From a virus: a stretch of 64,000 nucleotides of DNA. The stretch's first letter is position 1. Each line of letters starts with the position of its first letter. The DNA lies in IMG/VR virus record IMGVR_UViG_3300020419_000005, one strand, 5' to 3'. The notes below the pieces were generated by a model. That model did no database searches, was not told where the DNA came from, and saw only the letters and a list, made by a program, of their open reading frames with translations. The translations under genes were made by a program, and so were the position numbers. Shown piece by piece: positions 15,001-49,180 of the stretch.

Positions 15001-18000
15001 CCATCAGTCCTGATAGTTCAGTTTCTAAGTTTTGTGTCCACTCAAATACATTTGCAGTAAACTGTGCTCCTTGACCAATAGATTCACAACGAATAGTTGT
15101 AAGACCAGTTGTATATCCAATTCCTCTATTTTCTACTGAAATACTTAATACTTTTCCTCTATCTTCACCAGTTTCTCCAATGGTTGCTTTTGCAATAGCA
15201 CCATAACCATCACCATTAATAATAATATTAGGAGGAGATGTATATCCACTACCAGAAGCGATAATAGCAATAGAAACTATACGACCATTAATTATAATTG
15301 GTTGTGCAACAGCACCCTCACCAGAGTTTAACTTAATTGTAGGAGATGAAGTATATGCAGATCCTGCTGATGTTATTGATACAGATTGAATTGGACCTCT
15401 TACAGCAGCAGTAGCAGTAGCACCTGTTCCATTGCCTCCTGAGATGCTTACAGTAGGTGCTGAGGTGTATCCTTGACCAGGTGCCTCAACTAGAACTTTA
15501 CTTACAACTCCATTTGTAATAACAGCAGTCGCAGTAGCACCGAATCCACCTCCACCAACAATAGAGACTAAAGGAGATGCAGTATATCCAGAACCACCTG
15601 CTGTTACATCAACACTGAATAGTGAACCATTTACAACAACGGTTGCTTGAGCATTTGTTCCACCACCACCAGATATTTCAATAAGTGGTTTAGATGCAGC
15701 ATCATATCCTGTACCTGCATTTACAATATCAACACTTGTAAGTCCACCAAATTTAGTCTTAACTTGAGACTTGTAAGACCAAACTGCGACACCATTTACC
15801 CAACAACCTATAGGACCAAATGATAACTCATCACGACGTGATACAGTCTCTACAATTCTTGGGAATCTACTTAATTTTCTTTGGTTTCCTGGTAAGAGAG
15901 CAGACCCAACAAACGGACCAACCTCATAGTTTGGAATACCTGTTGTAGCAATGTAAGAGTAACTTGAGTTGAAGAATGTATTTTGTACATTGGTAGTGAA
16001 CTGGTTAATTGAGTTATTAATTGCTTCTTCTGTTGATTTACCTTTATTAAGGTCAACAGACATCAAAATATTACCTTGAGGTGCATTAGGTGCAGGAGAG
16101 GCAATCTGATATGAGAATACAGTGTTACTTATACGAGATGTTACAGCAAATGTACCGTTAAACACTGTTGGGTTTGCACCATATATTGTTACAGAGTCAC
16201 CAACAAGAAGACCGTGATTATTTGTAGTATATACAGTTGCAGTTTGATTATTAAGTCCACCTGGTTCAATATTGTTTACAGATATTAATTTTTTAACATT
16301 GTATAACCAAGATGTAACTCTTTGATCTATAGATGAAGAACCAAGAGATGCAACGTTTAATTTATCACTAGGAAGATAATATGAACCAGTATCTGTAAGA
16401 ACTGTTCCTGTTGCTTCAGCAATACCAAGAACACGTAATTTTACTTCAGTATCTAGTCCTCTATTAATATAACAGAAAATATCAGAGAATATTGTTGTAC
16501 CTGCATCCCAATCTTCTACAACACCATTCTTAGAACGTGTACATTCAATAAACTGGTTAAGTGACTTTTCTTTATACTGTATTCTTTCATTATCACCCAT
16601 AATGATGATACCATTCCTTTCTGGCCAACCAATAGTAGAGTCAACAGTAATAATAGACTCAGTTGTTGTTAAAGGTTCTACAAGTGTTGTTTTATAAGGT
16701 ATTGAGAACTTTCCTTCTAATGTTTCTTCAGATATTGATAATTCATAGATTGTTCCAACACCAGTATTGATTGCGATAACGTTTTCAACTAAACAAACAG
16801 CATTTCCAACGCTTGTATCTACATCATCAGCATATTGGAATAACTGAGAGTCTAATATGTCAACAGGACTACCACTTATCAATTCTACACGAATAATAGT
16901 GTCAACAGACCAAGTTGCAGCAGATGGTTTGATTAATTCGTCTTTTGGATAAGAAACATCTACATCTTCAGAAAATAGAACTTTAAATAAGTATTCTGTA
17001 GCAGTCTTCGTACCTTTAGAGACATAAAAATCTTTTATTGTCTTTATAATCTGTGGAGCATTGATTTTAGTGTAATCAATGTCTGCATCAGGTAAAAATT
17101 GACTTACAAAACGTTCGTATAGTGTTTTTGAGAATAAAGAATCAAGGTTTTCAATAGTAACTCCAATCTCGTGAGAGGATTGAATACTTTGTGCTTCTGT
17201 TGTAAATACTTGGTTTCCTCTAATGTCATATGAAGAAACTCCAGAAACACCTCTCTTACAATTCTTAAATTGAGATGGTTTGTACTCAGAACCGTGTGAA
17301 TGTACTGTAAAACCAGTTATTTCTTGAAATCCTACATCGCAAGATGCTGCTGCTGCTTTTGGACTAGCAATAAAAACTTGAGGAGGTTCAGTGTCAGAAT
17401 ATCCATCACCAAAACTTGTTATATTAATATCAGTAATCTCACCATTGAATATTGTTGCAACAGCAGTTGCTCCTGTACCACCAATAGGATTATCAGATAA
17501 ATCTTTTCTATTATCAACAATATAAACAGATGGTGCATCATTATAACCAGATCCACCAGTTAAAAGTTGAATATCAGTTAATTTACCACCTGATACTTTA
17601 ACATCAAGTATTTGAGCACCTATAGGATCAATAATACGACATCTAGGAGGAGTTACATAACCTCTACCAGGAGAGATCATAGATATGCTTGCCACTCTAC
17701 TTTGATTGTCTAAAACTGCTACAGCAGACGCTCTAATACCAATAGGATCAACAGGAGCGTCAATATAAACTATAGGAGGAGTTGCATAGTTAAGTCCTTT
17801 TGTTAATACAGTTATAGATCCATCAATTACTTTACCGTCAGAATCTATTTGTGCATCACTAATAGTTGCACCTTGTGGATTTGTAAAACTTATAGAGGGA
17901 ATAGTATCATATCCAGATCCAGATGATTGTACATTAATTCCAGTTACTTGCCCACTAGCATCATCAATAGTTACAGTTGCTTTTGCAATAGAACCTGATG

Positions 18001-27936: not shown

Positions 27937-28146
27937 CTACCAGAGATACGTAACTTTTTTATTCTCAGGGAATTGTATTTTATCCCCAACTAAAATTGCG
28001 TCATACTTAGTTAATAGATGGAATGTTTGCTTCATAAAATTTAAAGCACCCTCTAGAGATAAATCGCTGATTAACTCAGCATCAAATCTTTTCTTATAGT
28101 AAGTTGTAGTTTGGAATTGCTTGAAAGTTATTTGATTAAGTTCCAT
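27937..28146 (-). CDS. Early hypothetical protein
   Basis: ORF with an upstream TATAAT promoter and AACAACAC leader. Confidence 0.65.
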   Translation of the reverse strand: MELNQITFKQFQTTTYYKKRFDAELISDLSLEGALNFMKQTFHLLTKYDAILVGDKIQFPENKKVTYLW

Positions 28147-28376
28147 AGTGGGTTGCTTAGTGTTGTTATATTAATTATAGCGAATTATTCCCCCCTATGC
28201 GAACTAATTAGAATATATGTTAAATTGCTGTTATTATGACAATCACGTTACATAACTCTTGAAAAAAACCGCCTTGCGTGCTAACTTCCTAAGACTACAA
28301 TAACCTAAGATATTAATAGAGATATAAAATTGAAAAGTATATTTATTTTAACCTTTTTAATTTATACTAAATCTAT

Positions 28377-28739
28377 TCATTTATACCGTAAGTTTTTAAA
28401 ATGATCGTTTACTTTGTTCCCATCTATATGTCTCACTTGCCTATGATCTATATTAGTTATTTGTTCTTCTTCTATTGTTTCCGCACTTATAAAAGCACTT
28501 GCTACAAGTCTGGCAATTCTTCTTACAACTGTTTTCCCTTCTTTTCTGAGAGTTACTCTCTTGTAACCGTTTTCATTAATATGAGTCTGTAATTGTTTCC
28601 ACTTTCCCCACTTAGTAGAGAATACTTCTCCATTCTCTTTTATGTAATAATCTTCATACTGTGGTAGTGCCTTATACAACTTTCCGCTATCATCAACAAA
28701 AGTTTCCGCATCAACTTTTTTAAACGTGTAAATAGTCAT
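28377..28739 (-). CDS. NUMOD4/HNH homing-endonuclease-like protein
   Basis: YYIKENGEVFS, GYKRVTL, RLVASAFI and VRHIDGNKVND..NL motifs. Confidence 0.8.
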   Translation of the reverse strand: MTIYTFKKVDAETFVDDSGKLYKALPQYEDYYIKENGEVFSTKWGKWKQLQTHINENGYKRVTLRKEGKTVVRRIARLVASAFISAETIEEEQITNIDHRQVRHIDGNKVNDHFKNLRYK

Positions 28740-28755
28740 TATTTTAAAGGATAAT

Positions 28756-28783
28756 AAAAAAAGGACTTTGTTAGAGTCCTTTT
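28756..28783. terminator. Intrinsic terminator, possibly bidirectional
   Basis: AAAAGGACT-7nt-AGTCCTTTT hairpin with T-run, downstream of the ArdA-like gene. Confidence 0.7.
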
Positions 28784-28814
28784 ATATAGGTATTTAATTA
28801 AAACCCTTTTATGC

Positions 28815-29354
28815 TTAGAAATTGTTGAAAATGTGATTATCCCACTCGCAATAATCATAACTTAGGTTATTATCCCATATTTTGTTATAATCAATAGAGG
28901 ACTCTATCCAAGTTGGTAAGTCTCTTGAAATATAACCACAATCTGAGATTAAGTTTTCTGTGAATTCTGCTCCACTTTCCCACTTTCCCATATATGAGTC
29001 TTCTAAGTGCATCAAGTCAGCAATATCGAAAATTGAAATAAATGCTTCAATAATCTCATCAACTGGCGAATCATAGTAACGTAACTCTTGAGATACGTTT
29101 TCATATGTGTCGATATGCTCGATAGCGTCATCAATATCAAGTTCAAAAGTCTCTTGAAATTCTTGAATTTCGTCAAGTCTCTCTGTACCTTCTTCAAGTG
29201 CTATCTCTGTAACTTTAGAAAATTCTACTCCATAGTCAGTAGAGAATTGTAAACTACGGTCAACAATAGCACTAAGTTCAGTAATTCTTGACTTTCTTAA
29301 GTCTGCATTAATCTGATCTAGTCTAGATTGCTGAGAGTTAGATAAAGTTTGCAT
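28815..29354 (-). CDS. ardA: ArdA-like antirestriction (DNA-mimic) protein
   Basis: Very acidic; C-terminus EDSYMGKWESGAEFTENLISDCGY...LPTWIESSIDYNKIW...DY...HIF resembles ArdA domain 3. Confidence 0.7.
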   Translation of the reverse strand: MQTLSNSQQSRLDQINADLRKSRITELSAIVDRSLQFSTDYGVEFSKVTEIALEEGTERLDEIQEFQETFELDIDDAIEHIDTYENVSQELRYYDSPVDEIIEAFISIFDIADLMHLEDSYMGKWESGAEFTENLISDCGYISRDLPTWIESSIDYNKIWDNNLSYDYCEWDNHIFNNF

Positions 29355-29372
29355 TTGGGATTTAAGTGTTGT

Positions 29373-29424
29373 TATATTAATGATAACATAAATTTTTGAT
29401 TTATGTCAAGAAAAAAGAGAATTT
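29373..29424 (-). repeat. 52-bp promoter cassette, copy 1 (TTGACA-17-TATCAT, extended -10)
   Basis: 50/52 identical to 29728-29779. Confidence 0.85.
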
Positions 29425-29705
29425 TATACTTTCTTAAGGTTTACATATCCCTCATAATAAGTAATTGCAAGTTCTAAAACAATTTCAAAAACCTCTGTTG
29501 AAACATAAATTTCATTATCAAAAACGTAAGAATCTCTTTTCATTAAGACTTCTAAAACGTTATGGGCAATATCTTCTAAATCTTTTTGAGTAAAAACAGT
29601 TGCCTTCCACCCACCAGTATAGTTAAATCTTTTATCAAGTGTTTTAACTAAATCCTCTGTTGTAACTGTGGATAGGTCAAGAGCGAAATTTTTGATTTTT
29701 GACAT
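29424..29705 (-). CDS. Early hypothetical protein
   Basis: Likely start MSKIKNF at 29705, because the track start at 29744 lies inside the promoter. Confidence 0.65.
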   Translation of the reverse strand: MSKIKNFALDLSTVTTEDLVKTLDKRFNYTGGWKATVFTQKDLEDIAHNVLEVLMKRDSYVFDNEIYVSTEVFEIVLELAITYYEGYVNLKKV

Positions 29706-29727
29706 TTTGGGAAAAAAGTGTTTTGTA

Positions 29728-29779
29728 TATATTAATGATAACATAAATTTTTAGTTTATGTCAAGAAAAAAGAGAATTT
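29728..29779 (-). repeat. 52-bp promoter cassette, copy 2 (TTGACA-17-TATCAT)
   Basis: 50/52 identical to 29373-29424. Confidence 0.85.
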
Positions 29780-29788
29780 AATATTCTC

Positions 29789-30037
29789 TTAATATTCTCC
29801 CCATATTCTAAGATATGCGTTAATCTCTGCTAATGTGCAAGAATATTTGTACTCAGCAGCATTACCAGTAATAAATCGCCCAAAACTATTAGTTAATGCT
29901 ATCTCAAATAATCCTTCTTTAGTGTATTCTAGGATAGATGCACCAAAGTTATTATTTGGGAAATTTATCTTACTTACTGTTGTATCTGGGATATTTCCCT
30001 TTTCTGTAGCGTAAGGATAGAATTCAAACATAATCAT
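29789..30037 (-). CDS. Early hypothetical protein (F.N..GAS..GL.EIA family)
   Basis: ORF with its own promoter cassette and AACAACAC leader. Confidence 0.65.
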   Translation of the reverse strand: MIMFEFYPYATEKGNIPDTTVSKINFPNNNFGASILEYTKEGLFEIALTNSFGRFITGNAAEYKYSCTLAEINAYLRIWGEY

Positions 30038-30121
30038 TAAGTGTTGTTATTACTATGATAACATAAAAATTTGATTATGTGAGACTTTTTTTAAAATGAA
30101 TTGTTAAGAAATTATAAAGCA

Positions 30122-30158
30122 TAAAAAAAGGTTAGAGTTCCCACGCTCTAACCTTCTT
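30122..30158 (-). terminator. Intrinsic terminator
   Basis: Minus strand AAGGTTAGAG-8nt-CTCTAACCTT followed by TTTTTAT. Confidence 0.8.
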
Positions 30159-30196
30159 TAATTGAATATGTTAAGATATATTACAATCAGTTGCAA

Positions 30197-30269
30197 TATT
30201 AACCCTAGTGTGAGTTAGGATTAATAACTGGACTTACATCAAGGGAACACTAAACCCTTAAATGCCAGT
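30197..30269 (-). ncRNA. Candidate structured RNA (two adjacent hairpins) in a 3' UTR
   Basis: ACTGG/CCAGT with CATTTAAGGG/CCCTTGATG, and TATTAATCCTA/TAGGGTTAATA; G-U wobbles form only on the minus strand. Confidence 0.55.
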
Positions 30270-30274
30270 AACGT

Positions 30275-30706
30275 TTAACCTAGTGGGTAGTATCCGTTAG
30301 TGTTGAAATAGTCTATATCTGAAATAGTTAAATGCTTTTCAAATACTTTCATACCTTCATAAAATTGAATCTCAGCACCAGTTAATGTGTCTACTAAAAT
30401 CCATTGCTTTTTATGTTGCTTTATATAAACTCTATCCTTAGTTAGTTCACTAAGAATTGCGTTTAATCTCTCTTTAGTTGTTTTGGTTCTAAAACCGCCA
30501 TTATACAATTTAACTGACCTGTAACCAAAGTGTGTGTGGTCAATTTCTGCTATAACAGTATCGTAAAATTTTACGTCAACAATGTTAGAACCGTCTTGTC
30601 TAGTAATAACTTCAGTATTACCTAGTCCAGTTCCCTTAGTGTTGCACTTCATCATAGCGAAAATTGCTGATGTTGTACTGGGTTTTGAAAAAGTCAAGTT
30701 GGTCAT
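30275..30706 (-). CDS. Conserved phage early protein (GGF.T.TTKERLNA motif)
   Basis: ORF with its own promoter cassette. Confidence 0.7.
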   Translation of the reverse strand: MTNLTFSKPSTTSAIFAMMKCNTKGTGLGNTEVITRQDGSNIVDVKFYDTVIAEIDHTHFGYRSVKLYNGGFRTKTTKERLNAILSELTKDRVYIKQHKKQWILVDTLTGAEIQFYEGMKVFEKHLTISDIDYFNTNGYYPLG

Positions 30707-30777
30707 AGTGTTTTTTGCTTATGAGTCTATTCTAGCAAAGAATAGTGGTATATGTGGATTGAATTGTTAAGAGAATC

Positions 30778-30909
30778 TTAAGACTTTTTTTTCTTAGCGT
30801 CTCTAACCATTTTATTAAACTTCTTACTTTGTTTTGGACTCATACCGCAAAAATAGTTTAATAAGTTGCCTTCATATTGATCGGCAAGTGCTATAAGGTC
30901 ATTATTCAT
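30778..30909 (-). CDS. Small early hypothetical protein
   Basis: Hand translation MNNDLIALADQYEGNLLNYFCGM...; coupled to the upstream ORF. Confidence 0.5.
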   Translation of the reverse strand: MNNDLIALADQYEGNLLNYFCGMSPKQSKKFNKMVRDAKKKKS

Positions 30910-31043
30910 TAGTAAGTACCTCTTAATAAGTTCTTACTGTTGTTAAACTGGTCAATAAGTGCTTCAGTTTTAGCGTTTTGTTTCGCTATTTCCTTATCGG
31001 CAAATTTGATAAGTCTGTGAAGCATTTGTAAATCCTTATCCAT
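30909..31043 (-). CDS. Small early hypothetical protein
   Basis: Hand translation MDKDLQMLHRLIKFADKEIAK...; AACAACACTAA leader. Confidence 0.5.
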   Translation of the reverse strand: MDKDLQMLHRLIKFADKEIAKQNAKTEALIDQFNNSKNLLRGTY

Positions 31044-31119
31044 AATGTTTAAATTAGTGTTGTTTGGATATATCCAATATAAGGGAAAATTAGGATAAAT
31101 GCAATAGGAAAACAGATTC

Positions 31120-31362
31120 TTAACATTTTTTTAACAATTCATCTTTTCCTCTTTGAATATATCCCTTTTTATATGATTCAACTGAAATTTCGCTTATATT
31201 CTCTATTTCTTCTTCAGTTAAACCTGATTCTTCAAAAATTAGTGCATTATCACTAAATTTTGTTAGAGTTTCAATTACTTCTTCAAAAGAAAAATCTCTA
31301 TTGATAGCATTTTCGCCAAATGCAATTTCAAAAACTTCTTCAATAAATTCATTTTGTGTCAT
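31120..31362 (-). CDS. Acidic early hypothetical protein
   Basis: ORF track; Glu-rich. Confidence 0.6.
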   Translation of the reverse strand: MTQNEFIEEVFEIAFGENAINRDFSFEEVIETLTKFSDNALIFEESGLTEEEIENISEISVESYKKGYIQRGKDELLKKC

Positions 31363-31495
31363 TTGATTAAATCCTTATGTAATTTGATTAAAATTGATGA
31401 ATTAACATCTATAATTTCAGTTTTCTTATCATCATTTTCAGAATAATGAAAGTTTAAACACTCTATCATATAGAGTAACTCTTTTTGTGTAAACA

Positions 31496-31696
31496 TTATA
31501 CAATTCCCTCTTCAACTAATCCCATTATGTTGCCTGTTTCATCAACTATTTCCCCAGTTTCGTTGTCCCTGACACAACTGTATTCATAATCACAACCAAA
31601 TTCAAAGGATAAATCCATTGCTTTTTGTAAATCGTCAGTAAATACCTCTGAATTGAATAATCTGGGTGTTTCAACTGTGTATTTGAAATTGTCCAT
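31496..31696 (-). CDS. Acidic early hypothetical protein
   Basis: ORF with a TTGACA promoter and AAACACTAAA leader. Confidence 0.65.
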   Translation of the reverse strand: MDNFKYTVETPRLFNSEVFTDDLQKAMDLSFEFGCDYEYSCVRDNETGEIVDETGNIMGLVEEGIV

Positions 31697-31776
31697 TTGT
31701 TTTTAGTGTTTGTATGTTATGATTTATTATTGCATATAATTCTGTTATATGTCAATAAGGAAATATAAAGAGAATA

Positions 31777-32034
31777 TTAAGATAATATTCCCATTTTTGT
31801 TGCTGTTTGTTTAGTTGCTCTACGCTCTATAACAAAATCCCTTACTCTCTCTCTATCAAGAGAATCCCCACCGCCCCAAGTAACGTGAGTTCCAACTTCG
31901 CATAAATCAAGATAGTTTAAAGTTGCAAGTGCTAACTCTTCCCTAGTTAAACCGTCTATAGGGTAAAGTACATCAGGGTGACTAGGTGAATAGAATGATT
32001 CACAATAATCAAGAAATTCTTTAAAGTTGTCCAT
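31777..32034 (-). CDS. Conserved cyanophage early protein (GGGDSLDRERVRD motif)
   Basis: Likely start MDNFKEF at 32034, immediately after the AAACACT leader. Confidence 0.7.
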   Translation of the reverse strand: MDNFKEFLDYCESFYSPSHPDVLYPIDGLTREELALATLNYLDLCEVGTHVTWGGGDSLDRERVRDFVIERRATKQTATKMGILS

Positions 32035-32106
32035 AGTGTTTTTTGTAGATGAATCCATCATAACATAAAATAATGAATGATGGATATATGAATTGTTAAA
32101 TAAATG

Positions 32107-32352
32107 TTAAGAAAATAAATCTGAACATAATGATCTATGAATCATAAACAATTTATCTAAATCGCTTGAATCAAAACTTATCCATTCTGAGACGTATTCC
32201 CATCTATCAAAATCTGTAACCATTCCATCAAAATCTGGTGCTGAACAAAAATCCTTATTTTCGTCTAACCAAAATGACCTTCCAAAGTGCATAGAATGAG
32301 TTACTCTCAATTCTATTGATTGATTCCACTCATATGTTGATAAAGTAGGCAT
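32107..32352 (-). CDS. Early hypothetical protein
   Basis: ORF with its own promoter cassette. Confidence 0.65.
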   Translation of the reverse strand: MPTLSTYEWNQSIELRVTHSMHFGRSFWLDENKDFCSAPDFDGMVTDFDRWEYVSEWISFDSSDLDKLFMIHRSLCSDLFS

Positions 32353-32426
32353 AGCGTTTAAAGTGTTGTTATATCCAATATATCATAAAATAATCAATAT
32401 TGGATATATGAATTGTTAAGAAATAA

Positions 32427-32615
32427 TTAAAAGACGTAACAGTTATGAATAAACATTAATTCTTCATACTGTTCTGTTGAATATGCTCGTTTATCCTGTA
32501 TGTTGAAATCCGACCAATCGCAACCATCTAATTTGATTTCCAAATTTTCGTATTCTGAATTCCATCGATGTAAAATTTTTGTACCATCAATTTGAGAGAT
32601 AAATTTTCTTATCAT
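32427..32615 (-). CDS. Early hypothetical protein
   Basis: ORF track; coupled to the upstream ORF. Confidence 0.55.
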   Translation of the reverse strand: MIRKFISQIDGTKILHRWNSEYENLEIKLDGCDWSDFNIQDKRAYSTEQYEELMFIHNCYVF

Positions 32616-32616
32616 T

Positions 32617-32847
32617 TTAAAAAACTCCTTCTAGTGATAATTGAGTATCGGCAAATACTTCTTCTTCGATTTCGTCTATTACTTCGTTGTATTCGCCATA
32701 ATCTTCAGAATAGTCATCCCAATCATAATCCCCATTTTCAAAAATTTCTCTTGCGTGTTCCTGACTTCTTGCCATTATGGTATAAGTACCATATTTTTCA
32801 AATTTTGTTGTAACGTAGAAGCGTTTTTCTGTAGTTAGTTGTTTCAT
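32617..32847 (-). CDS. Acidic/aromatic early protein
   Basis: Likely start MKQLTTEK; C-half DYDWDDYSEDYGEYNEVIDEIEEE. Confidence 0.6.
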   Translation of the reverse strand: MKQLTTEKRFYVTTKFEKYGTYTIMARSQEHAREIFENGDYDWDDYSEDYGEYNEVIDEIEEEVFADTQLSLEGVF

Positions 32848-32851
32848 ATTA

Positions 32852-33115
32852 TTAACCCTTCGCTTCCATTTTCTGTTCAAATGCTAGTCTATCCCTTTCT
32901 TCGGGTGTAGTAACCGTTTCTGGGTCATACTGAGCGTTATATGCTTCTTGAAAGTCAAATCCTAGCATACCGTCAACGATTTCCTGTAATTCGTCAATAT
33001 CTGTTTCAAATTGACTAAACCAAAAATCTTGATTCATAGGATGCTTATTATCGTTTTCTTTACGATAGTTTTCTAGGTCAGTTTGGAACTGTTCTAAAAT
33101 TTTTTCAAAGTTCAT
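32852..33115 (-). CDS. Early hypothetical protein
   Basis: ORF with its own promoter cassette. Confidence 0.65.
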   Translation of the reverse strand: MNFEKILEQFQTDLENYRKENDNKHPMNQDFWFSQFETDIDELQEIVDGMLGFDFQEAYNAQYDPETVTTPEERDRLAFEQKMEAKG

Positions 33116-33194
33116 AGTGTTTTATGTGTTCTTGTATCCACTATATCATAAGATAATGAATAATGGATATATGAATTATAAAGAAATTGTTAAA

Positions 33195-33569
33195 TTACTT
33201 GTTGAATTGATCGTAAAAATCGTCACTATTCAGTAGTGGCAACTGTTCATAAGATAAACGACATTCGGGGTCAGGTTGCATAAATGCAACTATATCGTCA
33301 GTAAAACTGGTTACGTCTCCTTCATAGGCACTATAATAAGTGTTTTCAAACTCATAATCTTCCCATTGAGCATTTTTCCAGTTTAATAAATCCCAAGAAA
33401 AAACGTCTTCTTCAACATCCGATGAGTAATTTTCATACTGTTCTCTTGTCAATACAACTTCTTCTAAGATAAATCTTCTTCTTACAAGTGTAACTAGATT
33501 GTCTGAGTCTATTTTTTCTTGACCCATTTGTTGTGCTAGTATCTGTTGATTAGGTGTTAATTTACTCAT
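33195..33569 (-). CDS. Acidic early hypothetical protein
   Basis: ORF track; D/E/Y/W-rich. Confidence 0.6.
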   Translation of the reverse strand: MSKLTPNQQILAQQMGQEKIDSDNLVTLVRRRFILEEVVLTREQYENYSSDVEEDVFSWDLLNWKNAQWEDYEFENTYYSAYEGDVTSFTDDIVAFMQPDPECRLSYEQLPLLNSDDFYDQFNK

Positions 33570-33701
33570 TGATGATAAACCTCATAATGTTGAATTGTGT
33601 CAAGTGCTTCGATTTGATGATCGTTTAACTCAAAGTCCATATCTCTGAGTATATCATACAATTTAACCATATTGTAAATTTGATCGTTTGTTAATGGTAT
33701 A

Positions 33702-33923
33702 TTAATCATTTTCCATACCTCGCATTGAATCGTCAAATTTCCAATAGGTGTATAACCACTCGAAATTGTCTGTTAATGGTTCTTTACCATCTACAACAAA
33801 TTCATCAAATAATGCTCTTGAATCCTCTGTACGGTTTTCATCAACTGCTCTGATGGTTGATTTCATTATTGTGTCAATTAAGACATCAATAGATTTATCT
33901 AAAGTTTCGGTCATCATTGGCAT
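33702..33923 (-). CDS. Early hypothetical protein
   Basis: ORF track. Confidence 0.55.
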   Translation of the reverse strand: MPMMTETLDKSIDVLIDTIMKSTIRAVDENRTEDSRALFDEFVVDGKEPLTDNFEWLYTYWKFDDSMRGMEND

Positions 33924-34124
33924 AAATCCTCAAATCTTTTTCCTACGATAGCATCTATAGATACTGGGTCAAGATCTGACTCTTTAACGTCAAATCCTTC
34001 TTTTTTCAAATTTGCGAGTGATTCAGCAACAACCTCATCATAGAGTGTTTCTAAAATCGCTTCGTGATGTAAAACTGACATAATAGTGTTTTGTGTCTTG
34101 ATTTAATATTAAAGGATAATGTGA

Positions 34125-34358
34125 CTATTTCAAGTCTGGTAGTGCCACTTCTTTAACTGGCATAGCATAGAGTATTTTTTCAAATGTTGCTTTGCTATCT
34201 TTTAATTTGTTCTTTTTGTACCATACTCTATACATATCAACGGTATTTGATGTATCATTACCATTTGTTTCATTATTATAGAATGAGAAAAAGAACATCA
34301 TAGAGTCAATTAAAATCTGTTGCTCTGTTTCGTTTAATGTTATGTTAAGTTGTTTCAT
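34125..34358 (-). CDS. Early hypothetical protein
   Basis: ORF track; coupled to the upstream ORF. Confidence 0.55.
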   Translation of the reverse strand: MKQLNITLNETEQQILIDSMMFFFSFYNNETNGNDTSNTVDMYRVWYKKNKLKDSKATFEKILYAMPVKEVALPDLK

Positions 34359-34360
34359 AA

Positions 34361-34699
34361 TTAACAGTAAAATGAAGTTGGTCTTTTAGCAATTTTAGTC
34401 TGATCTTTTCTTTTCATTCTCAAAACCTCGAAATCTCTCTCAAGATCAAACGCTGTTTCTTTTGCTATTGGAAATTTAGTCTTACGTTGCTCTTTAGATA
34501 GTTCAAGTTCATTCTCTGTTAACCATTGATCTTTAATGACCTCTTGAACCTTCTTAAATGCCCCTACAACCGCATCTTTACCGTATCGGTCAAATGCTAG
34601 TCCTGACGTTGAATTGCTCTCGTCTAGGTCGCAATAACAGTAACCTAACTGATTTGCGATTAAACCTAGTTCTCTTGCTGTTAGATTTAATTGATACAT
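34361..34699 (-). CDS. Early hypothetical protein
   Basis: ORF with an upstream tandem TTAACA box. Confidence 0.65.
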   Translation of the reverse strand: MYQLNLTARELGLIANQLGYCYCDLDESNSTSGLAFDRYGKDAVVGAFKKVQEVIKDQWLTENELELSKEQRKTKFPIAKETAFDLERDFEVLRMKRKDQTKIAKRPTSFYC

Positions 34700-34771
34700 T
34701 TTAGTTGTTTGGATTGTAATAGTTTAACATTATTATTATAATGGATATAATGACTAGAATTGTTAAGAAAA

Positions 34772-35038
34772 TCATAAGATTGCTTTTTCCTCCATTTTGT
34801 TGTCAATTAAATAAGCAATAAAATCATTCCATTCTGACCAATCTTGATCGTAAACTGAGTAACAAATGTCTTTGATAAATTCATCATCAATTCTTTTTGT
34901 ATCCCATTCTTCCCTATCGTATGTGTCAATAACAGATAATACATCTGATTTTATGTCAACATAGTCCATAGCAAATTGCATAGGATTAGGGCAACTGTTT
35001 AACCAATTTTGGTATTCTTGTTGATTTTTATTGGTCAT
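34772..35038 (-). CDS. Acidic early hypothetical protein (YQNWLNSCP motif)
   Basis: ORF with a long structured leader. Confidence 0.65.
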   Translation of the reverse strand: MTNKNQQEYQNWLNSCPNPMQFAMDYVDIKSDVLSVIDTYDREEWDTKRIDDEFIKDICYSVYDQDWSEWNDFIAYLIDNKMEEKAIL

Positions 35039-35060
35039 TTAATTAGTGTTTAAATTGATA

Positions 35061-35151
35061 GTGGAGGAGGTTCGATTTTAAAATCTTTTCCACCGATGCT
35101 CTTAGTAGGACTAACCCACAATGTCGGGATGAGATTACCCTTGCCCTCCAC
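35061..35151 (-). ncRNA. Candidate structured 5'-leader RNA
   Basis: GC-rich island closed by GTGGAGG/CCTCCAC, with nested CCGA/TCGG and GTGGG/CCTAC stems. Confidence 0.45.
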
Positions 35152-35335
35152 ATTTATAATGTACCATATCAACGGTACAATACAATAGATGATGTGACAC
35201 TATGTGAATTGTCCTACTCTTCCCTCACTTCAAACAATTCATATGTAATCATATCAATCAGATCTACGTCAAGATCTTCTTTAAGATAATCTCTGAGTTT
35301 CTTTGAACTCATTGCTTTAATTTCTTGATAGGTCA

Positions 35336-35548
35336 TTATTTTAATTGAATGTGATAGTTAAATTTGATAGGATAAAAACCACTACTGGCAATGATTTCTT
35401 CCCTTAAATCGTCTTCATTGTCTGCTTCATAAACACCGAGTGCTGAGTCTCTGATTGCAATTTCTTCATCAAATGTTAGTTGGCACTCTGGGATACCATC
35501 GCCAAATTCACAAAAGTCAAACTCAATGTCTGTTACATCATACATCAT
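35336..35548 (-). CDS. Acidic conserved cyanophage early protein (VTDIEFDF motif)
   Basis: ORF track. Confidence 0.65.
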   Translation of the reverse strand: MMYDVTDIEFDFCEFGDGIPECQLTFDEEIAIRDSALGVYEADNEDDLREEIIASSGFYPIKFNYHIQLK

Positions 35549-35732
35549 TAGTCATTTCCTCCATAAGTGAGTCAATTTCTTCAGCACAAAATCCGCACCT
35601 CCAACCTTCAACTTCATCGTTGTAAACTGGATAACGATTTACATATCTACCTGTTCCGAATGAACATAGACTACCACAATCAACACATATTTCAGTTTTG
35701 AATGTATCTACTGGTTTACACATTAATTTCAT
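35538..35732 (-). CDS. Small zinc-ribbon-like protein
   Basis: CVDC...CGFC. Confidence 0.6.
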   Translation of the reverse strand: MKLMCKPVDTFKTEICVDCGSLCSFGTGRYVNRYPVYNDEVEGWRCGFCAEEIDSLMEEMTNDV

Positions 35733-35995
35733 TGTGCATACTCCTCAACTTCCTCTACTACATCATCAAAACCATCATCCCAATAGTTTTGGGCATCATC
35801 AAGAAATTCGACATCTGACATATTCTTATACAAGTCATCAAGGTCTGCTGTAACATAGGCAACTAAGTCCTCTGTTGACATATTGTCAACTGCTCTCTCA
35901 ACCAAAAATGATTTGAGTTCGTTAATTAGTGCGGGTGTAAAATCTTTTTTTACTTGTCTCATTTTATTATGAGAGTAATATTCAAATTGTGTCAT
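35729..35995 (-). CDS. Acidic early hypothetical protein
   Basis: ORF track; VDNMSTEDL motif. Confidence 0.6.
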   Translation of the reverse strand: MTQFEYYSHNKMRQVKKDFTPALINELKSFLVERAVDNMSTEDLVAYVTADLDDLYKNMSDVEFLDDAQNYWDDGFDDVVEEVEEYAQ

Positions 35996-35997
35996 AA

Positions 35998-36228
35998 TTA
36001 GTGTGATCTGATAGTATCATACACTCTAACTGATAAAGTTTGGTCTCCAGAGGTGTCAATTTTTTCTCTGTCACACGCTTTACCAACTATTGTCCAAATT
36101 TGGTGTAGTTCTTCATCATTGAGGAATTCTGCCATATTGTAGTAAACTTCATTGCCCTCTTGATAAGGGTCATCATCAGGGAATGTATATTTCACTCCCT
36201 CTGGTTGGTATCCTCTTGGGTCTGTCAT
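35998..36228 (-). CDS. Early hypothetical protein
   Basis: ORF track. Confidence 0.55.
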   Translation of the reverse strand: MTDPRGYQPEGVKYTFPDDDPYQEGNEVYYNMAEFLNDEELHQIWTIVGKACDREKIDTSGDQTLSVRVYDTIRSH

Positions 36229-36458
36229 TATTTCCCCTCGTTTCTAAGTGCTTCTTCTGCATCATCAACTAATTGTTTCTGATTTAGCATATGCTCAACT
36301 TTTTCTTGAGCAAATCCCTCTATCTTTTCATAGAACCAATCTGAGTCTGTAATGACATCAGTTTGATGATCTACTAATTCTGTGACATACGCTTTGATGA
36401 CTTCGGCAAGTTTGTTTCCGAATGTCTCGTCAACGCTGTTTAACATTGGGTCAATCAT
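36228..36458 (-). CDS. Early hypothetical protein
   Basis: ORF with its own promoter and AACAAACAC leader. Confidence 0.6.
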   Translation of the reverse strand: MIDPMLNSVDETFGNKLAEVIKAYVTELVDHQTDVITDSDWFYEKIEGFAQEKVEHMLNQKQLVDDAEEALRNEGK

Positions 36459-36518
36459 TTTGGTGTTTGTTAACTATAATCTATTATTGCATAGCGTTAT
36501 GTACTATGCAATTCCAGG

Positions 36519-36542
36519 TGTGACAGTATTATAACTGTCACA
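36519..36542. promoter_or_regulatory. Perfect palindrome TGTGACAGT-N6-ACTGTCACA upstream of an early promoter
   Basis: 9-bp inverted repeat; degenerate copies at 27865, 34120, 35193, 37728 and 39495. Confidence 0.7.
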
Positions 36543-37038
36543 TAATCTGAGTACCTTGCTCTTTAATTATCCTATTACTAATAGTGTGACCTAAACGTGG
36601 GTCTTTTCTATTCTTAACTGTATTGAATTTCTTTTTCAATGCAGGGATGAGTTCATCTAATACTTGTTTCGCTGTCATTCGCCATACTTCAACGATTTTT
36701 CCATCTTTGTATCTGGCATAATAGTGATGATGATATTTTCCTATTTTCTCATCAACTAGATAATTGACTTGCTTTTCCCAAGTATCTTGAACTGATATAC
36801 CATTGTATGTCGCTGTCAACTTCTTACCTATGGTTGACTTATATTCTATGGGTAAGTCATATTTGTCGTATGCGTCAGCACCAGAATAATCCTCTGCTAC
36901 TGTATGACCGAGTACCCCTGCCATATGAATCTCTCTTGATCTGGCATAACTGAATGGGTCTCCCCAACCTTGCTCTTCGCAAAGTTTGTACATATTCTCA
37001 AATAATTGCTGATAGCGTTGTTCTGGTTTGTTCATCAT
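36538..37038 (-). CDS. PD-(D/E)xK nuclease resembling restriction endonuclease PvuII
   Basis: SGADAYD....IEYKS catalytic motif plus IGKY..YYARY..GKIVEVWRM and IIKEQGTQIM, collinear with PvuII as recalled; start probably the ATG at 37038 or 37035. Confidence 0.6.
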   Translation of the reverse strand: MMNKPEQRYQQLFENMYKLCEEQGWGDPFSYARSREIHMAGVLGHTVAEDYSGADAYDKYDLPIEYKSTIGKKLTATYNGISVQDTWEKQVNYLVDEKIGKYHHHYYARYKDGKIVEVWRMTAKQVLDELIPALKKKFNTVKNRKDPRLGHTISNRIIKEQGTQIM

Positions 37039-37189
37039 AGTAAGGTGTCCTCTGATAATAGTGTTCCCCACTCAGTATAGACGTATGGGTACTGTTTTGC
37101 AAGTTTTTTAAAGTGATGGAAATCATCTAGTGATAATTCTTCATTTGTTTCGTGGTATTTTTGCCACCTAGTTTGCACTTCATTGAATG

Positions 37190-37666
37190 TCATACTAATA
37201 CCTCACCTTTTTCAATTTGATCTAACGCTCTACGAGTGCAGGGTGTTGCTTCATAGGATAGTATCTGGTCATAGTTCTCATCATATTGATGCTTTAACTC
37301 ATACATCGCCCAGAATCCTTGACCTCTACCGTTTGGAACAAATATGTATGAATACTCTTGCCAACAATCAATCATAAAGAAATCTTTTCGTTTCTTACTG
37401 ATAATTGGTTCTTCATTGTCTCCACCATAGTATGATGGTTTTGGGTCAGCGATAGGTGTAAACTCTCCTGTTTCTACATTAAACTTACTGTCAGACCAAC
37501 AGTTTGACATATTGCCACCGTCAATAAGTTTGTTTACTGATTCTTCAGTATTATAGTGAGTGAGTAATTTAACTCCTAGTCCTTCGGGGTATCCATCAAA
37601 GTGATGATATACAGATTTTATTGAACCATCTTCTAATTCAATTCCTATTCTTGATCTAGTTGACAT
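37190..37666 (-). CDS. Conserved phage early protein (MSTRS.IG...Y.H.DGYP family)
   Basis: Motif SVYHHFDGYPEGLG; own promoter. Confidence 0.7.
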   Translation of the reverse strand: MSTRSRIGIELEDGSIKSVYHHFDGYPEGLGVKLLTHYNTEESVNKLIDGGNMSNCWSDSKFNVETGEFTPIADPKPSYYGGDNEEPIISKKRKDFFMIDCWQEYSYIFVPNGRGQGFWAMYELKHQYDENYDQILSYEATPCTRRALDQIEKGEVLV

Positions 37667-37701
37667 AATTGGTGTTTGTTAACTGAATCCATTATAGACA
37701 C

Positions 37702-37724
37702 AAAAAAACCCCCTGTCTAGGGGG
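37702..37724 (-). terminator. Terminator hairpin embedded in an early promoter spacer
   Basis: CCCCT-AGAC-AGGGG then GTTTTTTTG, followed by TATAAT. Confidence 0.7.
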
Positions 37725-37735
37725 CAATGTGACAC

Positions 37736-38137
37736 TTACCAATGTGTCCCAAGATGCGTCATTGTGTTCTTAAATGTGGTAAGAGTGGAACTATTAGTAA
37801 TATCCGTTGTACTGACTCTTGCTGATGCTTCATCTTTACCTATGAGTCCGTCTTTGGTTACAAATCCCCATACAGTAACTAATGCACCTCTATCTGAGGG
37901 TGCTGTTGCAACGATTTCTAGGTCGTCTCCTGCTGATCTACTAGCAAATGACCAAGTTACCTTTTCGTTATCTCCTGTTACTAAATCCTTTTTTGATTGT
38001 AATTTGTAATCAGAGAGACTTCCTGTACCTGCTGATGTCATTCTAGCATTGATGTTTGCTAATCTGTATGCTTTCGCTTTCGCAACCAATTCAGTACACA
38101 CGCTGTTAGTTGCAGTTATAGTTGCTGATGTTGCCAT
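37736..38137 (-). CDS. Ala/Thr/Ser-rich hypothetical protein, probably late or virion-associated
   Basis: Perfect TATAAATA at 38166-38173 upstream. Confidence 0.6.
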   Translation of the reverse strand: MATSATITATNSVCTELVAKAKAYRLANINARMTSAGTGSLSDYKLQSKKDLVTGDNEKVTWSFASRSAGDDLEIVATAPSDRGALVTVWGFVTKDGLIGKDEASARVSTTDITNSSTLTTFKNTMTHLGTHW

Positions 38138-38165
38138 TTTTACTATGTACTTTGTTTCGTAATTC

Positions 38166-38173
38166 TATTTATA
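38166..38173 (-). promoter_or_regulatory. T4-type late promoter TATAAATA
   Basis: Exact consensus, 28 nt upstream of the ATG at 38137. Confidence 0.65.
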
Positions 38174-39440
38174 CCACTAATGACTCAGGAGGTAGTCCAT
38201 TGATGAATATAGAATCTACAACTGTTTGTAATCTTCTGATTATATGCTTACCATAGTTTGCGTGGCAAGGTACGGTAACATATCCTGTTTTCTTCCTGTA
38301 AAAACTCAATGCACCCGCTTCAATTTTGCCCTCTCTAATGTCCTTAGAATCGTCTGTATCCATTCTAATTACTCTACCTATAGTTTGTGCCATAGACACC
38401 ACATCTAACTGTCTCAGGAGGATACAATGGGTCAATCCTGACACGTTGATACCTTCACTCAAGATACTGTAATGGAATATAATAAACTTCTTGTTTTTGT
38501 CTCTACCATATTGAGTGAGAGTATCGAAAAACTTTTCTCTGTTTACTTTTTGTCTATTAACATATGCACCAAACTTAGATGTAATATGCAAGAACTCAAA
38601 TCCACGTTTCTCAAGTTGATATATCAAATCGGTTTGAGACATCATTGCTCCCAACATTCTGCTAGACGGTACACTAACAAGAACCTTATGTGCATCATCA
38701 CTATCAAGTGTGTCCAGTATATCAGTAACAGTTTGACTATCAAGGTCAAATGCCTGTTTCCTGTCTCTATTCTCTTTAGTATGAAATGGAACTATGGTAG
38801 GAGGAATGATCGAACCATTGTCAATAAGTTCTTTTGCTTCAATATTACAAATAATATTTCCGTATATAGTTCCGTTGTTCATTCCCCTAGTATTGCGATA
38901 ACTAATACGAGGAGTAGCAGTAAAAAAATATGTGGATTTAGAATGACGAGAAATAGACTCAGTAGGAGGACTAAAAGACCTCGTAACAGAGTTATGTGCT
39001 TCGTCAAAATAAGCACCATCAATACTAATATCAGAATCGACAACACGTTTCAAAGAGTGATAAGTTGTAAAAATAATTAGATGTTTGGTACTATTGTCAA
39101 CAAAATTCTTGATTTTATCTGACTTAGTTGTGCTGTAGTAATGTGTTTCGCCACTATGAACGTGCATCACATCAATACCAACATTATAGTTACCATCAAG
39201 ATTCTGCTCTAGAAACTCTGAGCATAACTGGTTCGCAAGTAATATGCGTGGTGCAACAACAATAAAAGTTTTAGGATACCAATGTAGAGTTCCGCCTTCT
39301 GTTGTTTTTAATCGTCTTGTAAGATCGTGTATCATACACATAGTCTTACCACCACCAGTAGGTACAATGACCTGACCTTTGGAGTGGTTCTTCATAATAT
39401 CGACAATACGTTTTTGGTGTGGTCGTAATGTAATCATCAA
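38169..39440 (-). CDS. Superfamily 2 (DEAH, ResIII-like) helicase
   Basis: LRPHQ, PTGGGKT, APRILLANQ, DEAH, TATP, LSEGIN and QTIGRVIR motifs. Confidence 0.9.
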   Translation of the reverse strand: MMITLRPHQKRIVDIMKNHSKGQVIVPTGGGKTMCMIHDLTRRLKTTEGGTLHWYPKTFIVVAPRILLANQLCSEFLEQNLDGNYNVGIDVMHVHSGETHYYSTTKSDKIKNFVDNSTKHLIIFTTYHSLKRVVDSDISIDGAYFDEAHNSVTRSFSPPTESISRHSKSTYFFTATPRISYRNTRGMNNGTIYGNIICNIEAKELIDNGSIIPPTIVPFHTKENRDRKQAFDLDSQTVTDILDTLDSDDAHKVLVSVPSSRMLGAMMSQTDLIYQLEKRGFEFLHITSKFGAYVNRQKVNREKFFDTLTQYGRDKNKKFIIFHYSILSEGINVSGLTHCILLRQLDVVSMAQTIGRVIRMDTDDSKDIREGKIEAGALSFYRKKTGYVTVPCHANYGKHIIRRLQTVVDSIFINGLPPESLVV

Positions 39441-39654
39441 AGTGTTTTAATTCACTCCATCATAAACATAAAAACCCCACGTTTCAATGTGGAGTGTGAC
39501 AGTTATTAAATTGGTTACTTGATACAATAATCTGCATCAACCTTACATAGTTCTTCTTGTAGTCTCTGGTTTCTCTCATTCCTGTCAATTTTAAATGTTG
39601 TACGAATGAGTGATAAAAACACAAGTCCAATAAAAATATATAACAAATAAGGTT

Positions 39655-43707: not shown

Positions 43708-43924
43708 CCTCCCCTCTGAAAACTAATAATTCATCACCGTTTTTCACCTCTTGCATTTCGGGGTGTGATGTTCTGTATGGTTTCATAGCGTCACCATAAC
43801 TGTTAGTAGGTGATCTATCCATTTCTTTTAATGTTGCTGTCATCATCTTAAACATAAATGCAAAGGTCATTCCAAATAGTGCAACAAAGAAACACAAATA
43901 AATGAATACTGTGATTTCGTTCAT
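43685..43924 (-). CDS. Small membrane protein (DUF2973-like)
   Basis: N-terminal TM helix and HPEM motif. Confidence 0.6.
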   Translation of the reverse strand: MNEITVFIYLCFFVALFGMTFAFMFKMMTATLKEMDRSPTNSYGDAMKPYRTSHPEMQEVKNGDELLVFRGEDEDDLDD

Positions 43925-44000
43925 TTCTTAATGTTCTCCCATTGAATAATGAGAAATAATCCTAGTGTTACCCAAAACACTACTTCTAGTCCATAGTTAC

Positions 44001-44732
44001 TCATAATAGTTCCTCGATTGCTTCGTCATCTTCATCAAGACCCTCTCCAGTATTGTTTTCACACTTACCGTAGTATGGATCGTGATTTTGTCGTGATTGT
44101 TCATTTCTTACTAAATCACTTGCTGCTTCCCACGGAGAAGCAAGCATAGGTCTGCCATCCCATTTTCTGTCAGCATATTGTCCGTTCTTATCTACATAAG
44201 AAACGAAACATTGTATCTGTTCTTTGTTTCCTTCATAGTTAGGTCTCCAATGTAAATCTTCGTGTCCTTTAAAGATTACGGAATCACCTGTTTCCAGAAA
44301 CAATTCGTGTTGTTCACCTTTTACATCTATAAAGAATGACCATTTATATTGTGGGTCTGCTGTAACACATATGTTACCTACCCACTCCCCAGAAGTCCTA
44401 TCTCTATGCTGATAACACTCTGTATTCTTTACATATAATCTACCATAACTAAATGTTTGCCATAATTGTTTTTCAATTAATGACTCAACAAATGGTTTAT
44501 GATACTGTCCTAATGCTTCAAAACATACAGGGCAATACATACTAAATGCCCCTGGCATTGTGGGGTCTCCCATTGGCATATCAGGGTATTGGAACTGTAC
44601 AACATCTTTAATCATATGATATTCAAGTGCTGTATGTTCACATAATTCTTTTGGAACTGCACTACGGGCAACAAAAAGACGATCCTCTACTAGAACCTCA
44701 ACTGCTACTCCTTCGTGATTAATTGTTCTCAT
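44001..44732 (-). CDS. 2OG-Fe(II) oxygenase
   Basis: SYGRLY, HRDR, L..GD.VIFKG...HWR. Confidence 0.8.
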   Translation of the reverse strand: MRTINHEGVAVEVLVEDRLFVARSAVPKELCEHTALEYHMIKDVVQFQYPDMPMGDPTMPGAFSMYCPVCFEALGQYHKPFVESLIEKQLWQTFSYGRLYVKNTECYQHRDRTSGEWVGNICVTADPQYKWSFFIDVKGEQHELFLETGDSVIFKGHEDLHWRPNYEGNKEQIQCFVSYVDKNGQYADRKWDGRPMLASPWEAASDLVRNEQSRQNHDPYYGKCENNTGEGLDEDDEAIEELL

Positions 44733-46762: not shown

Positions 46763-47571
46763 TTCTTTTTGTGGTAATTGATTGCTTTCATAGCACGAGA
46801 AATACGACCTTGAACATTGTCGTGTATCATATACTCGGCATTGATTGAGTAATTAAAAGCGTGTTCTAAATCCCAATCTTTATCAGTCGCATTATCGACT
46901 GACATATCATACCACCCTTTCTCTAAGTAAATACGTGGTATAGGTATATATTGTGCCAAAGGAGTACCCGCTTTCACAAGTGTTCCATCTTTGCCACTAT
47001 CCATAACGTGCCATTGTAATTGCACGTTGACTTGCATAGCATATCTAGGATCAAAGATCCCAGTTACAGCAGTAAAACGATCTTCATTATTCCAATGAAC
47101 GTGTTGTTGTAATAGAACAACATCATCACTAGATGTCAGTCGCCAAGGTGTTTCCACCTTTATGATATGTGCAAGTGTATCTCGTGGACTGTCAATGAGT
47201 GGTATGACCTGTTCTGGTGCGTGATTACTAATGTAATTAGTGTGTCTTGAGAATCTGCCAGGGGTCTCCCAAGTAAAAGATGCACCATCACCATTTGTGA
47301 TAATATGGAAATCCATAGGTGCAACAACTACCCATCCCATTCTCGCAATCTGCTTGATACCAGGGCAGTTTGAACTATTTTGTGTTCCTTGAAACGGGCA
47401 TTTCTTGTCCTTTGTTTCTTTTTCTTGCCAAGCACGTTTAATCTTAGATGTTGGCATAACTGGATAACATTCTGCTAATCCAGGCTCTAGACTGTGAAAC
47501 CTGACCCAAGGTTTTGGTTCTTTTTTCTTTTTCTTTTTAAATAAGTTCAGCACGTAATTCATCTCCTCCAT
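46759..47571 (-). CDS. Conserved phage protein (CPGI...GTPLAQYIP family, dUTPase-like beta fold suspected)
   Basis: CPGI, K.ETPW and KAGTPLAQYIP motifs; start uncertain. Confidence 0.6.
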   Translation of the reverse strand: MEEMNYVLNLFKKKKKKEPKPWVRFHSLEPGLAECYPVMPTSKIKRAWQEKETKDKKCPFQGTQNSSNCPGIKQIARMGWVVVAPMDFHIITNGDGASFTWETPGRFSRHTNYISNHAPEQVIPLIDSPRDTLAHIIKVETPWRLTSSDDVVLLQQHVHWNNEDRFTAVTGIFDPRYAMQVNVQLQWHVMDSGKDGTLVKAGTPLAQYIPIPRIYLEKGWYDMSVDNATDKDWDLEHAFNYSINAEYMIHDNVQGRISRAMKAINYHKKK

Positions 47572-49177: not shown

Positions 49178-49180
49178 TAA

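Follow-up and report, generated by a model that had tools for sequence, protein, structure and literature searches.

What is the role of the structured, non-coding stretch of about 150 nt that a cyanophage carries between the stop codon of one of its early genes and a strong terminator? To our knowledge, T4-like cyanophages do without MotA/AsiA and RegB, the way in which they switch off their early genes is almost undescribed, and lytic phages have so far yielded very few RNAs that act in trans. For the cyanophages, a 2025 review names only CfrI and Rfam-predicted elements (PMC12197685). Here we examine this stretch within the window, the whole 64-kb piece of DNA that was analysed. An earlier note on this DNA had proposed a small RNA derived from the 3′UTR, one loop of which is antisense to the leaders of the early genes. 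We find that the region is best explained as a lineage-specific structured non-coding RNA module that is transcribed as an early-gene 3′UTR. As a candidate RNA regulator of the phage's own early genes, the element is credible but unproven.

The phage behind the window is a T4-like cyanomyovirus (Kyanoviridae); the GC content is about 35 %, and the minus strand carries all genes. The gene order parallels that of Prochlorococcus phage P-RSM6: a giant structural protein is followed by gp6, an island of small early genes, a pair of tryptophan halogenases and finally tail fibres. Since even gp6 is only 57 % identical to its P-RSM6 counterpart, the window phage represents a lineage apart from P-RSM6. 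The giant open frame (2-19141, minus strand; at least 6380 aa) runs past the window edge and is syntenic with the 25.7-kb 'virion structural protein' gene that adjoins P-RSM6 gp6. The two tryptophan-halogenase genes stand in tandem (47537-50665, minus strand), as they do in P-RSM6.

The element itself is surrounded by a mosaic island of cassettes (Table 1). The promoter of the element-bearing mRNA was found by a consensus scan and is followed by the leader AAAAACACUAUG. Just downstream of the element, two further genes of the early island code for an ArdA-like anti-restriction protein (28815-29354, minus strand; phrog_36653, Pfam ArdA below threshold) and for a homing-type endonuclease of the HNH/NUMOD4 kind (28377-28739, minus strand). 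Two promoters (29380-29409 and 29735-29764, minus strand) have the near-identical consensus TTGACA-18-TATCAT with TG and an AACACUU leader after each, which suggests a duplicated cassette.

Table 1. Positions in the window of the element, of the mRNA that bears it and of the related early-gene features
Feature	Position	Strand	Remarks
Sigma-70-type promoter, extended -10	30729-30758	-	TCCACA-18-TAGAAT; consensus scan; drives the element-bearing mRNA
Kyano_Gp96 early gene (Pfam; phrog_554)	30275-30706	-	143 aa; the element is its 3′UTR
Stop codon TAA of the Kyano_Gp96 gene	30277-30275	-	
Hairpin 1	30269-30227	-	Outer stem ACUGGC/G-CCAGU (invariant), internal loop, inner 7-bp stem UUAAGGG/CCCUUGA (covaries)
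Loop 1, UUUAGUGUU	30254-30246	-	Invariant in 9/9 variants; reverse complement of the leader motif AACACU(AAA)
Hairpin 2	30226-30197	-	11-bp stem; its U·G pair is fixed in all variants; a single compensatory switch from C-G to A-U
Loop 2, ACUCACAC	30215-30208	-	(A/U)CUCACAC across variants; CUCACAC core invariant
AU-rich linker, variable	30196-30159	-	Relatives differ in sequence, with a 25-nt indel
Intrinsic terminator	30158-30125, then U7 (to 30121)	-	13-14 bp stem; kept in relatives
Promoter of the next cassette	30055-30083	-	
AACACU leader motif of the next cassette	30040-30045	-	
ORF of the next cassette	29789-30037	-	
AACACU-type leaders, about 12-15	28146-39446	-	
Best predicted contiguous target, leader AACACUAAA of ORF 31496-31696	31702-31710	-	9-bp match to loop 1, -7.6 kcal/mol

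Folding of the region agrees with what had been described from inspection, namely two minus-strand hairpins between a stop codon and a strong terminator. The 166-nt stretch reaches a fold z-score of -3.9 against shuffles. The two hairpins are separated by 0-3 nt, the whole module measuring about 150 nt. The view that G-U pairing favours the minus strand also holds: folded alone, the two hairpins give z = -3.2 on the minus strand vs -2.0 on the plus strand, and the invariant U·G pair favours the minus strand. Loop 1 has a predicted unpaired probability of at least 0.93, and the leader of the element's own mRNA one of 0.75-0.99. Some relatives have an MFE structure in which the outer stem is lengthened instead (AUUUA/UAAGU). 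This extension is broken in the L002- and L003-type variants, and the covarying inner stem was preferred.

The element lies directly past an early-gene stop codon and ahead of a terminator, in keeping with the proposed derivation from a 3′UTR. A conserved structure and an intrinsic terminator directly past the stop codon are the arrangement of a terminator-ended 3′UTR-type sRNA. A consensus promoter scan of the 3′ end of the upstream gene revealed no convincing promoter belonging to the element, which is thus best read as a 3′UTR. One internal candidate picked by eye in that 3′ end, TTGAAA-N18/19-TATAGA, failed the consensus scan and decays to TATTGA in relatives. Public runs that hold this DNA are mostly metagenomes; five RNA libraries contain small shares of it, and four of them were mapped on the window as assembled contigs. 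These four metatranscriptome runs cover the early island in patches. Over the element there is a single RNA-library contig, which has a depth of about 3 and spans 30009-30236; it covers hairpin 2 together with the terminator and the promoter of the next cassette. Assembled contigs do not resolve RNA ends, and this one could be DNA carry-over.

How widely is the element distributed? Protein-guided and pattern searches gathered relatives from 4 IMG/VR contigs and 12 metagenome contigs. Counting the window, there are 9 distinct variants, all from one narrow clade of P-RSM6-like cyanomyoviruses. Each complete copy sits behind the same Kyano_Gp96-family gene and before its terminator, and the Gp96 relatives at 89-97 % amino-acid identity all bear the element. 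Searching IMG/VR with a hairpin-2 pattern gave no contigs beyond the same 4, and a looser hairpin-1 pattern produced 88 matches that are mostly due to chance. The covariance model R1 detected no extra copies in the window or in two long relative contigs, indicating that the element is single-copy. The same model found nothing at 5 loci with a 47-49 % identical Gp96, in the surroundings of two remote relatives of the downstream ORF (loci L096 and L097), or in 49 kb of P-RSM6 that include the syntenic region. In the cultured-phage collection, there was neither a DNA match for the element region nor a protein match for the downstream ORF; the upstream Gp96 protein matched only 4 Synechococcus-phage records, at 39 % identity or less. 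The element had 0 matches in cellular genomes and none in G001, the nearest virus record (a 17-kb fragment).

Within this narrow clade the stems have changed in a coordinated manner. RNAalifold run on a plain MAFFT alignment independently returned the same two-hairpin structure, with 97.7 % of cells able to pair and both-side changes at 4 pairs. In the model-fitted alignment, these values are 99.5 % and 5 pairs. Sliding the partners by 1-3 columns left pairing at only 25-58 %. Three pairs (alignment A2) or 4 (A3) with both-side changes are in the inner stem of hairpin 1, which occurs in five forms: UUAAGGG/CCCUUGA, UUAAGGG/CCCUUAA, UAAAAGG/CCUUUUA, UAAAAGU/ACUUUUA and UUAUAGG/CCUAUAA. The earlier note had staked its proposal on a conserved loop sequence, and both loops are indeed fixed over the 9 variants, save that loop 2 starts with either A or U. 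Over these same variants, the linker ahead of the terminator has diverged, the 25-nt indel included. Indels of 1-2 nt are present in the element region and, not being triplets, argue against coding.

The mean column identity of the 9 variants is 93 % and, because the clade is shallow, the independent covariation events are few. Compensated stems, fixed loops and a free linker are nevertheless the pattern that a functional RNA would show even in a shallow clade, and we consider it very probable that the element is a real, selected 3′UTR RNA structure. The 25-nt linker insertion forms an extra small hairpin, AACUUAGAA..CUAAGUU, in L001 (3520-3590) and likewise in L003, L103 and L105; it is missing from the window and from the L002-type variants.

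The proposed counterpart of loop 1 is a motif in the leaders of the early genes. In the 25 nt that precede predicted start codons, no hexamer is more enriched than AACACT, which is present in 12 of 79 leaders vs 1.15 expected (p=2e-9). The motif lies 9-18 nt past the -10 box and 0-14 nt ahead of the AUG of promoter-proximal genes. Promoter-proximal early genes with an AACAC(U/C) leader have no Shine-Dalgarno sequence, whereas internal, coupled genes keep GGAG-like sites. Enrichment is confined to the 25 nt before starts, AACACTA over the whole window not being above chance (24 observed vs 18.5 expected). AACACT is also the top hexamer in the relative G002 (12/94) and ranks second in the relative G003. 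The motif is missing from P-RSM6, which has GGAG leaders, and from the more distant Gp96-carrying phages. The motif and the element thus have the same narrow distribution, and their co-occurrence in one clade only amounts to one evolutionary event.

Two other sets of hairpins were considered and set aside. Convergent anti-leader hairpins in P-RSM6 would have no usable leader motif to act on, because the leaders of that phage carry a Shine-Dalgarno sequence. In the window, a 27-aa hydrophobic ORF (43922-44005, minus strand) overlaps both of its neighbours by ATGA and is probably translated into a small membrane peptide; it contains a perfect 7-bp UAGUGUU/AACACUA hairpin that is also found in G002. 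As this second hairpin (about 43960-43990) lies within an ORF overlapping its neighbours, it is probably a coding coincidence and was not retained as a further element.

Direct comparison of loop 1 with the leaders recovers the relationship on which the earlier note was built. Loop 1 is perfectly complementary to AACACTAAA (31702-31710), and the claim that it pairs over 7-8 nt with at least seven other early leaders is also borne out: at least 7 contiguous nt are complementary in 9 of the 79 predicted leaders and at least 6 nt in 16 of 79, but AACACTA is at chance level window-wide. Among transcript-strand 9-mers, only 0.025 % reach the number of leaders matched by loop 1. The leader motif to which loop 1 is complementary is both real and clade-specific. 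AGTGTT occurs 18 times on the transcript strand; the two loops together offer seven hexamer slots, and the probability of its falling in them is 0.002. When all intergenic hairpin loops of the window are generously counted, the expectation of such a match becomes about 0.05 (at most 0.054), a corrected value that is suggestive and not decisive.

Pairing energies give a similarly graded picture. Leaders reaching -8 kcal/mol or better number 12 of 79, compared with 2.8 % of coding-sequence windows (Fisher p=3e-6), and shuffled loops match this count of 12 leaders in 1.3 % of trials. The energy distribution over all leaders does not differ from that over coding-sequence windows (Mann-Whitney p=0.16). 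The duplexes formed by loop 1 and the leaders are weak, from -4.6 to -7.6 kcal/mol for 6-9 bp. The leader of the element's own mRNA offers loop 1 7 bp in the window and only 6 bp in relatives (AACACUUUU). Because the loops never vary, covariation between loop and target cannot be assessed. Taken as a whole, the element presents a conserved seed that is predicted to be accessible and whose complement recurs in the initiation regions of early messages, as a 3′UTR-type base-pairing sRNA does.

The second loop points in another direction. In Yfr1, a cyanobacterial RNA of 54-69 nt, two stem-loops flank an unpaired stretch of 16-20 nt that holds the ultraconserved undecanucleotide ACUCCUCACAC (PMC2190773). 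Replacing UCCU abolishes the binding of Yfr1/Yfr10 to the target ppa; in Yfr10 a hairpin loop exposes the motif, to which Yfr2 base-pairs (PMC6778093). The CUCACAC of loop 2 is the 3′ seven nt of ACUCCUCACAC, which is 7 of 11 positions with UCCU missing. The likeness to Yfr1 that had been noticed from the sequence therefore stands for the CUCACAC core; membership fails because only this core is present, inside a hairpin loop, and close mimicry is not supported in view of the missing UCCU, the lack of a covariance-model match and the different architecture. The phage element resembles Yfr1 and Yfr10 in exposing CUCACAC, in being a small hairpin-rich RNA that ends on an intrinsic terminator and in belonging to the picocyanobacterial world. 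Yfr1 carries its motif in an unpaired stretch between stem-loops, whereas the phage motif is in a loop and its hairpins are joined by 0-3 nt; the phage architecture is therefore closer to that of Yfr10, with a motif that is still incomplete. The phage element further differs from Yfr1 in being a phage-encoded 3′UTR of about 150 nt.

No Rfam family accounts for the element. The covariance models of Rfam 15, including the cyanophage wcaG, manA, glnA and PhotoRC RNAs, gave no family match in the window at the gathering threshold, and a permissive search of 30050-30350 (E up to 10) matched neither Yfr1 nor another family. What remained were sub-threshold chance matches of 13-20 bits, against gathering scores of 50-80. 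The loop 2 complement, GUGUGAG, was not found on the transcript strand of the 64-kb window, so that a target of loop 2, if any, lies elsewhere, possibly in the host. The idea that the two hairpins mask each other in a kissing pseudoknot was not supported: only ACAC of the ACACUA in hairpin 2 is in the loop, which leaves 4 bp at -2.7 kcal/mol unless the stem opens, and the loops show no covariation.

We propose, at a probability of about 0.4, that the best mechanism is an early-made 3′UTR RNA that pairs, through its loop 1, with the AACACU leaders of the early regulon. The terminator-ended 3′ part would accumulate, either while still within the mRNA or once an endonuclease has released it near the stop codon, and the exposed loop 1 (UUUAGUGUU) would base-pair with the AACACU(A) motif. 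Its targets would be about 10-15 promoter-proximal early messages, its own mRNA included, whose short leaders have no Shine-Dalgarno sequence. Such pairing may occlude or alter ribosome loading or the access of RNases. With the RNA itself being made early, the output of early genes would be coupled to early transcription, and the element may serve as a feedback or timing device. Structure, conservation, strand, terminator, motif and complementarity are observed features of the DNA and its relatives; we infer from them the release of the RNA, its pairing in vivo and the direction of its effect. Half of the conserved surface stays unexplained by the pairing of loop 1 with the leaders, as no site in the window is complementary to loop 2.

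The element might instead act purely in cis and govern the processing or stability of the Gp96-family mRNA, for example as an RNase III or RNase E site, as a barrier to exonucleases or as a dock for an RNA-binding protein that reads the loops. In a sub-variant of this explanation loop 1 pairs with the AACACUA leader of its own mRNA, so that this single gene would be autoregulated. Either way, the other leader matches would be functionless. RNase III and RNase E processing sites are found, for example, between the early genes of T7. Hairpin 1, with its irregular succession of lower stem, internal loop and upper stem, appears to have a shape that is typical of RNase III sites. Also in favour of a role in cis are the position, which in every complete copy is right behind the stop codon of this one gene and ahead of its terminator, the lack of an own promoter, the 7 bp that the own leader gives loop 1 in the window and a corrected significance of the trans match of just about 0.05. 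However, a stability hairpin needs no invariant loops beside covarying stems, and the 3′ end is already protected by the terminator hairpin. Relatives moreover reduce the own-leader match to 6 bp, no cognate RNA-binding protein was identified and the neighbouring genes are without known function. We regard an exclusive role in cis as possible, though somewhat unlikely. A different effect on the same transcript would be that of a put-like processive antiterminator, in which adjacent stem-loops modify RNA polymerase and promote read-through of the terminator into the next cassettes. The shape would be compatible, with two stem-loops 0-3 nt apart in about 75 nt, 40-65 nt upstream of a strong terminator, and one RNA-library contig does cross that terminator. 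Yet read-through is not needed because the next gene has its own strong promoter, no Rfam family matches, and antitermination leaves the invariant loops and the leader-motif match unexplained. The known put RNAs belong to lambdoid phages, where they contact the enterobacterial RNA polymerase. Antitermination is hence very improbable here.

Coincidence would mean that the match between loop and leaders arose by chance and that the hairpins are kept only through the shallowness of the clade, as a functionless leftover of a mobile promoter/terminator cassette. The small sample (9 variants of a single narrow clade, with a mean column identity of 93 %), a window-wide chance of the loop match of about 0.05 and the location in a mosaic cassette island are all compatible with such an origin. 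Against this, the linker has diverged with indels while the stems changed only with compensation and the loops not at all, and both the shuffle and the slide controls were exceeded; we think coincidence quite improbable. Finally, the RNA may be directed at the host, with the CUCACAC of loop 2, by itself or along with loop 1, pairing with host RNAs and partially imitating the Yfr1/Yfr10 seed, so as to touch Yfr1 targets or titrate Yfr2-family sRNAs. Its core is invariant and exposed and equals the 3′ seven nt of the ultraconserved Yfr1 motif ACUCCUCACAC (PMC2190773); Yfr10 shows the same motif in a loop with which Yfr2 pairs (PMC6778093), and the 64-kb window, having no complementary site, points to a target outside of it. 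The phage loop nevertheless misses the UCCU needed for the binding of Yfr1/Yfr10 to ppa (PMC6778093), Rfam returned no match to Yfr1 or others even at E up to 10, and an identity of 7 nt could be due to chance given the many known seed sequences. A host-directed function by itself is improbable in our estimate; it could coexist with the pairing of loop 1 and the early leaders.

Several described systems share part of these properties. The c4 RNA of P1/P7 and the CI RNA of P4 are immunity RNAs of temperate phages, released by RNase P and each acting on one operon (ant, and the P4 alpha operon). They are like the element in being phage-encoded structured RNAs from a longer transcript whose exposed loops pair with short complementary stretches at or close to the ribosome-binding sites on messages of the same phage, as is proposed here; they are unlike it in that the present phage is a lytic T4-like cyanophage with about 10-15 dispersed candidate targets that have a common leader motif. 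Enterobacterial sRNAs of the CpxQ, SroC and DapZ type derive from 3′UTRs, depend on Hfq and RNase E and usually have linear seeds. The element corresponds to them in its place directly past a stop codon, in using the intrinsic terminator of the mRNA, in a conserved single-stranded seed upstream and in having no promoter of its own; its candidate seed, in contrast, is held in a hairpin loop.

Within the T4-type phages, the proposed role is closest in kind to that of T4 RegA (and of the RegB nuclease), an early phage product that recognises a short signal at many early initiation regions and shuts the messages down. RegA and RegB are proteins and the candidate is a base-pairing RNA, so that the analogy is functional only. 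T4-type phages also carry promoter-early stem-loop (PeSL) cassettes in their hyperplastic early regions. Here too, a terminator stem-loop is followed by an early promoter (30158-30055); unlike the PeSL, the two hairpins of the element precede that cassette and are single-copy, with no repeats at other cassettes.

A bolder and still tentative extension of the pairing model, which we hold to be rather doubtful, is that a private AACACU signal replaces the Shine-Dalgarno sequence in a lytic T4-like lineage and that the loop of an early 3′UTR RNA reads this signal to time or shut off the whole early regulon, as an RNA counterpart of T4 RegA; the Yfr1-like second loop may then act on host RNAs. The AACACU leader, as a lineage-specific Shine-Dalgarno substitute, is worth attention in its own right. 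Should the trans model fail, the element would still be a new conserved 3′UTR structure in an abundant group of ocean viruses. By combining a covariation-backed structured RNA, a defined recognition sequence of 6-9 nt and about a dozen defined leaders, the candidate provides a directly testable hypothesis.
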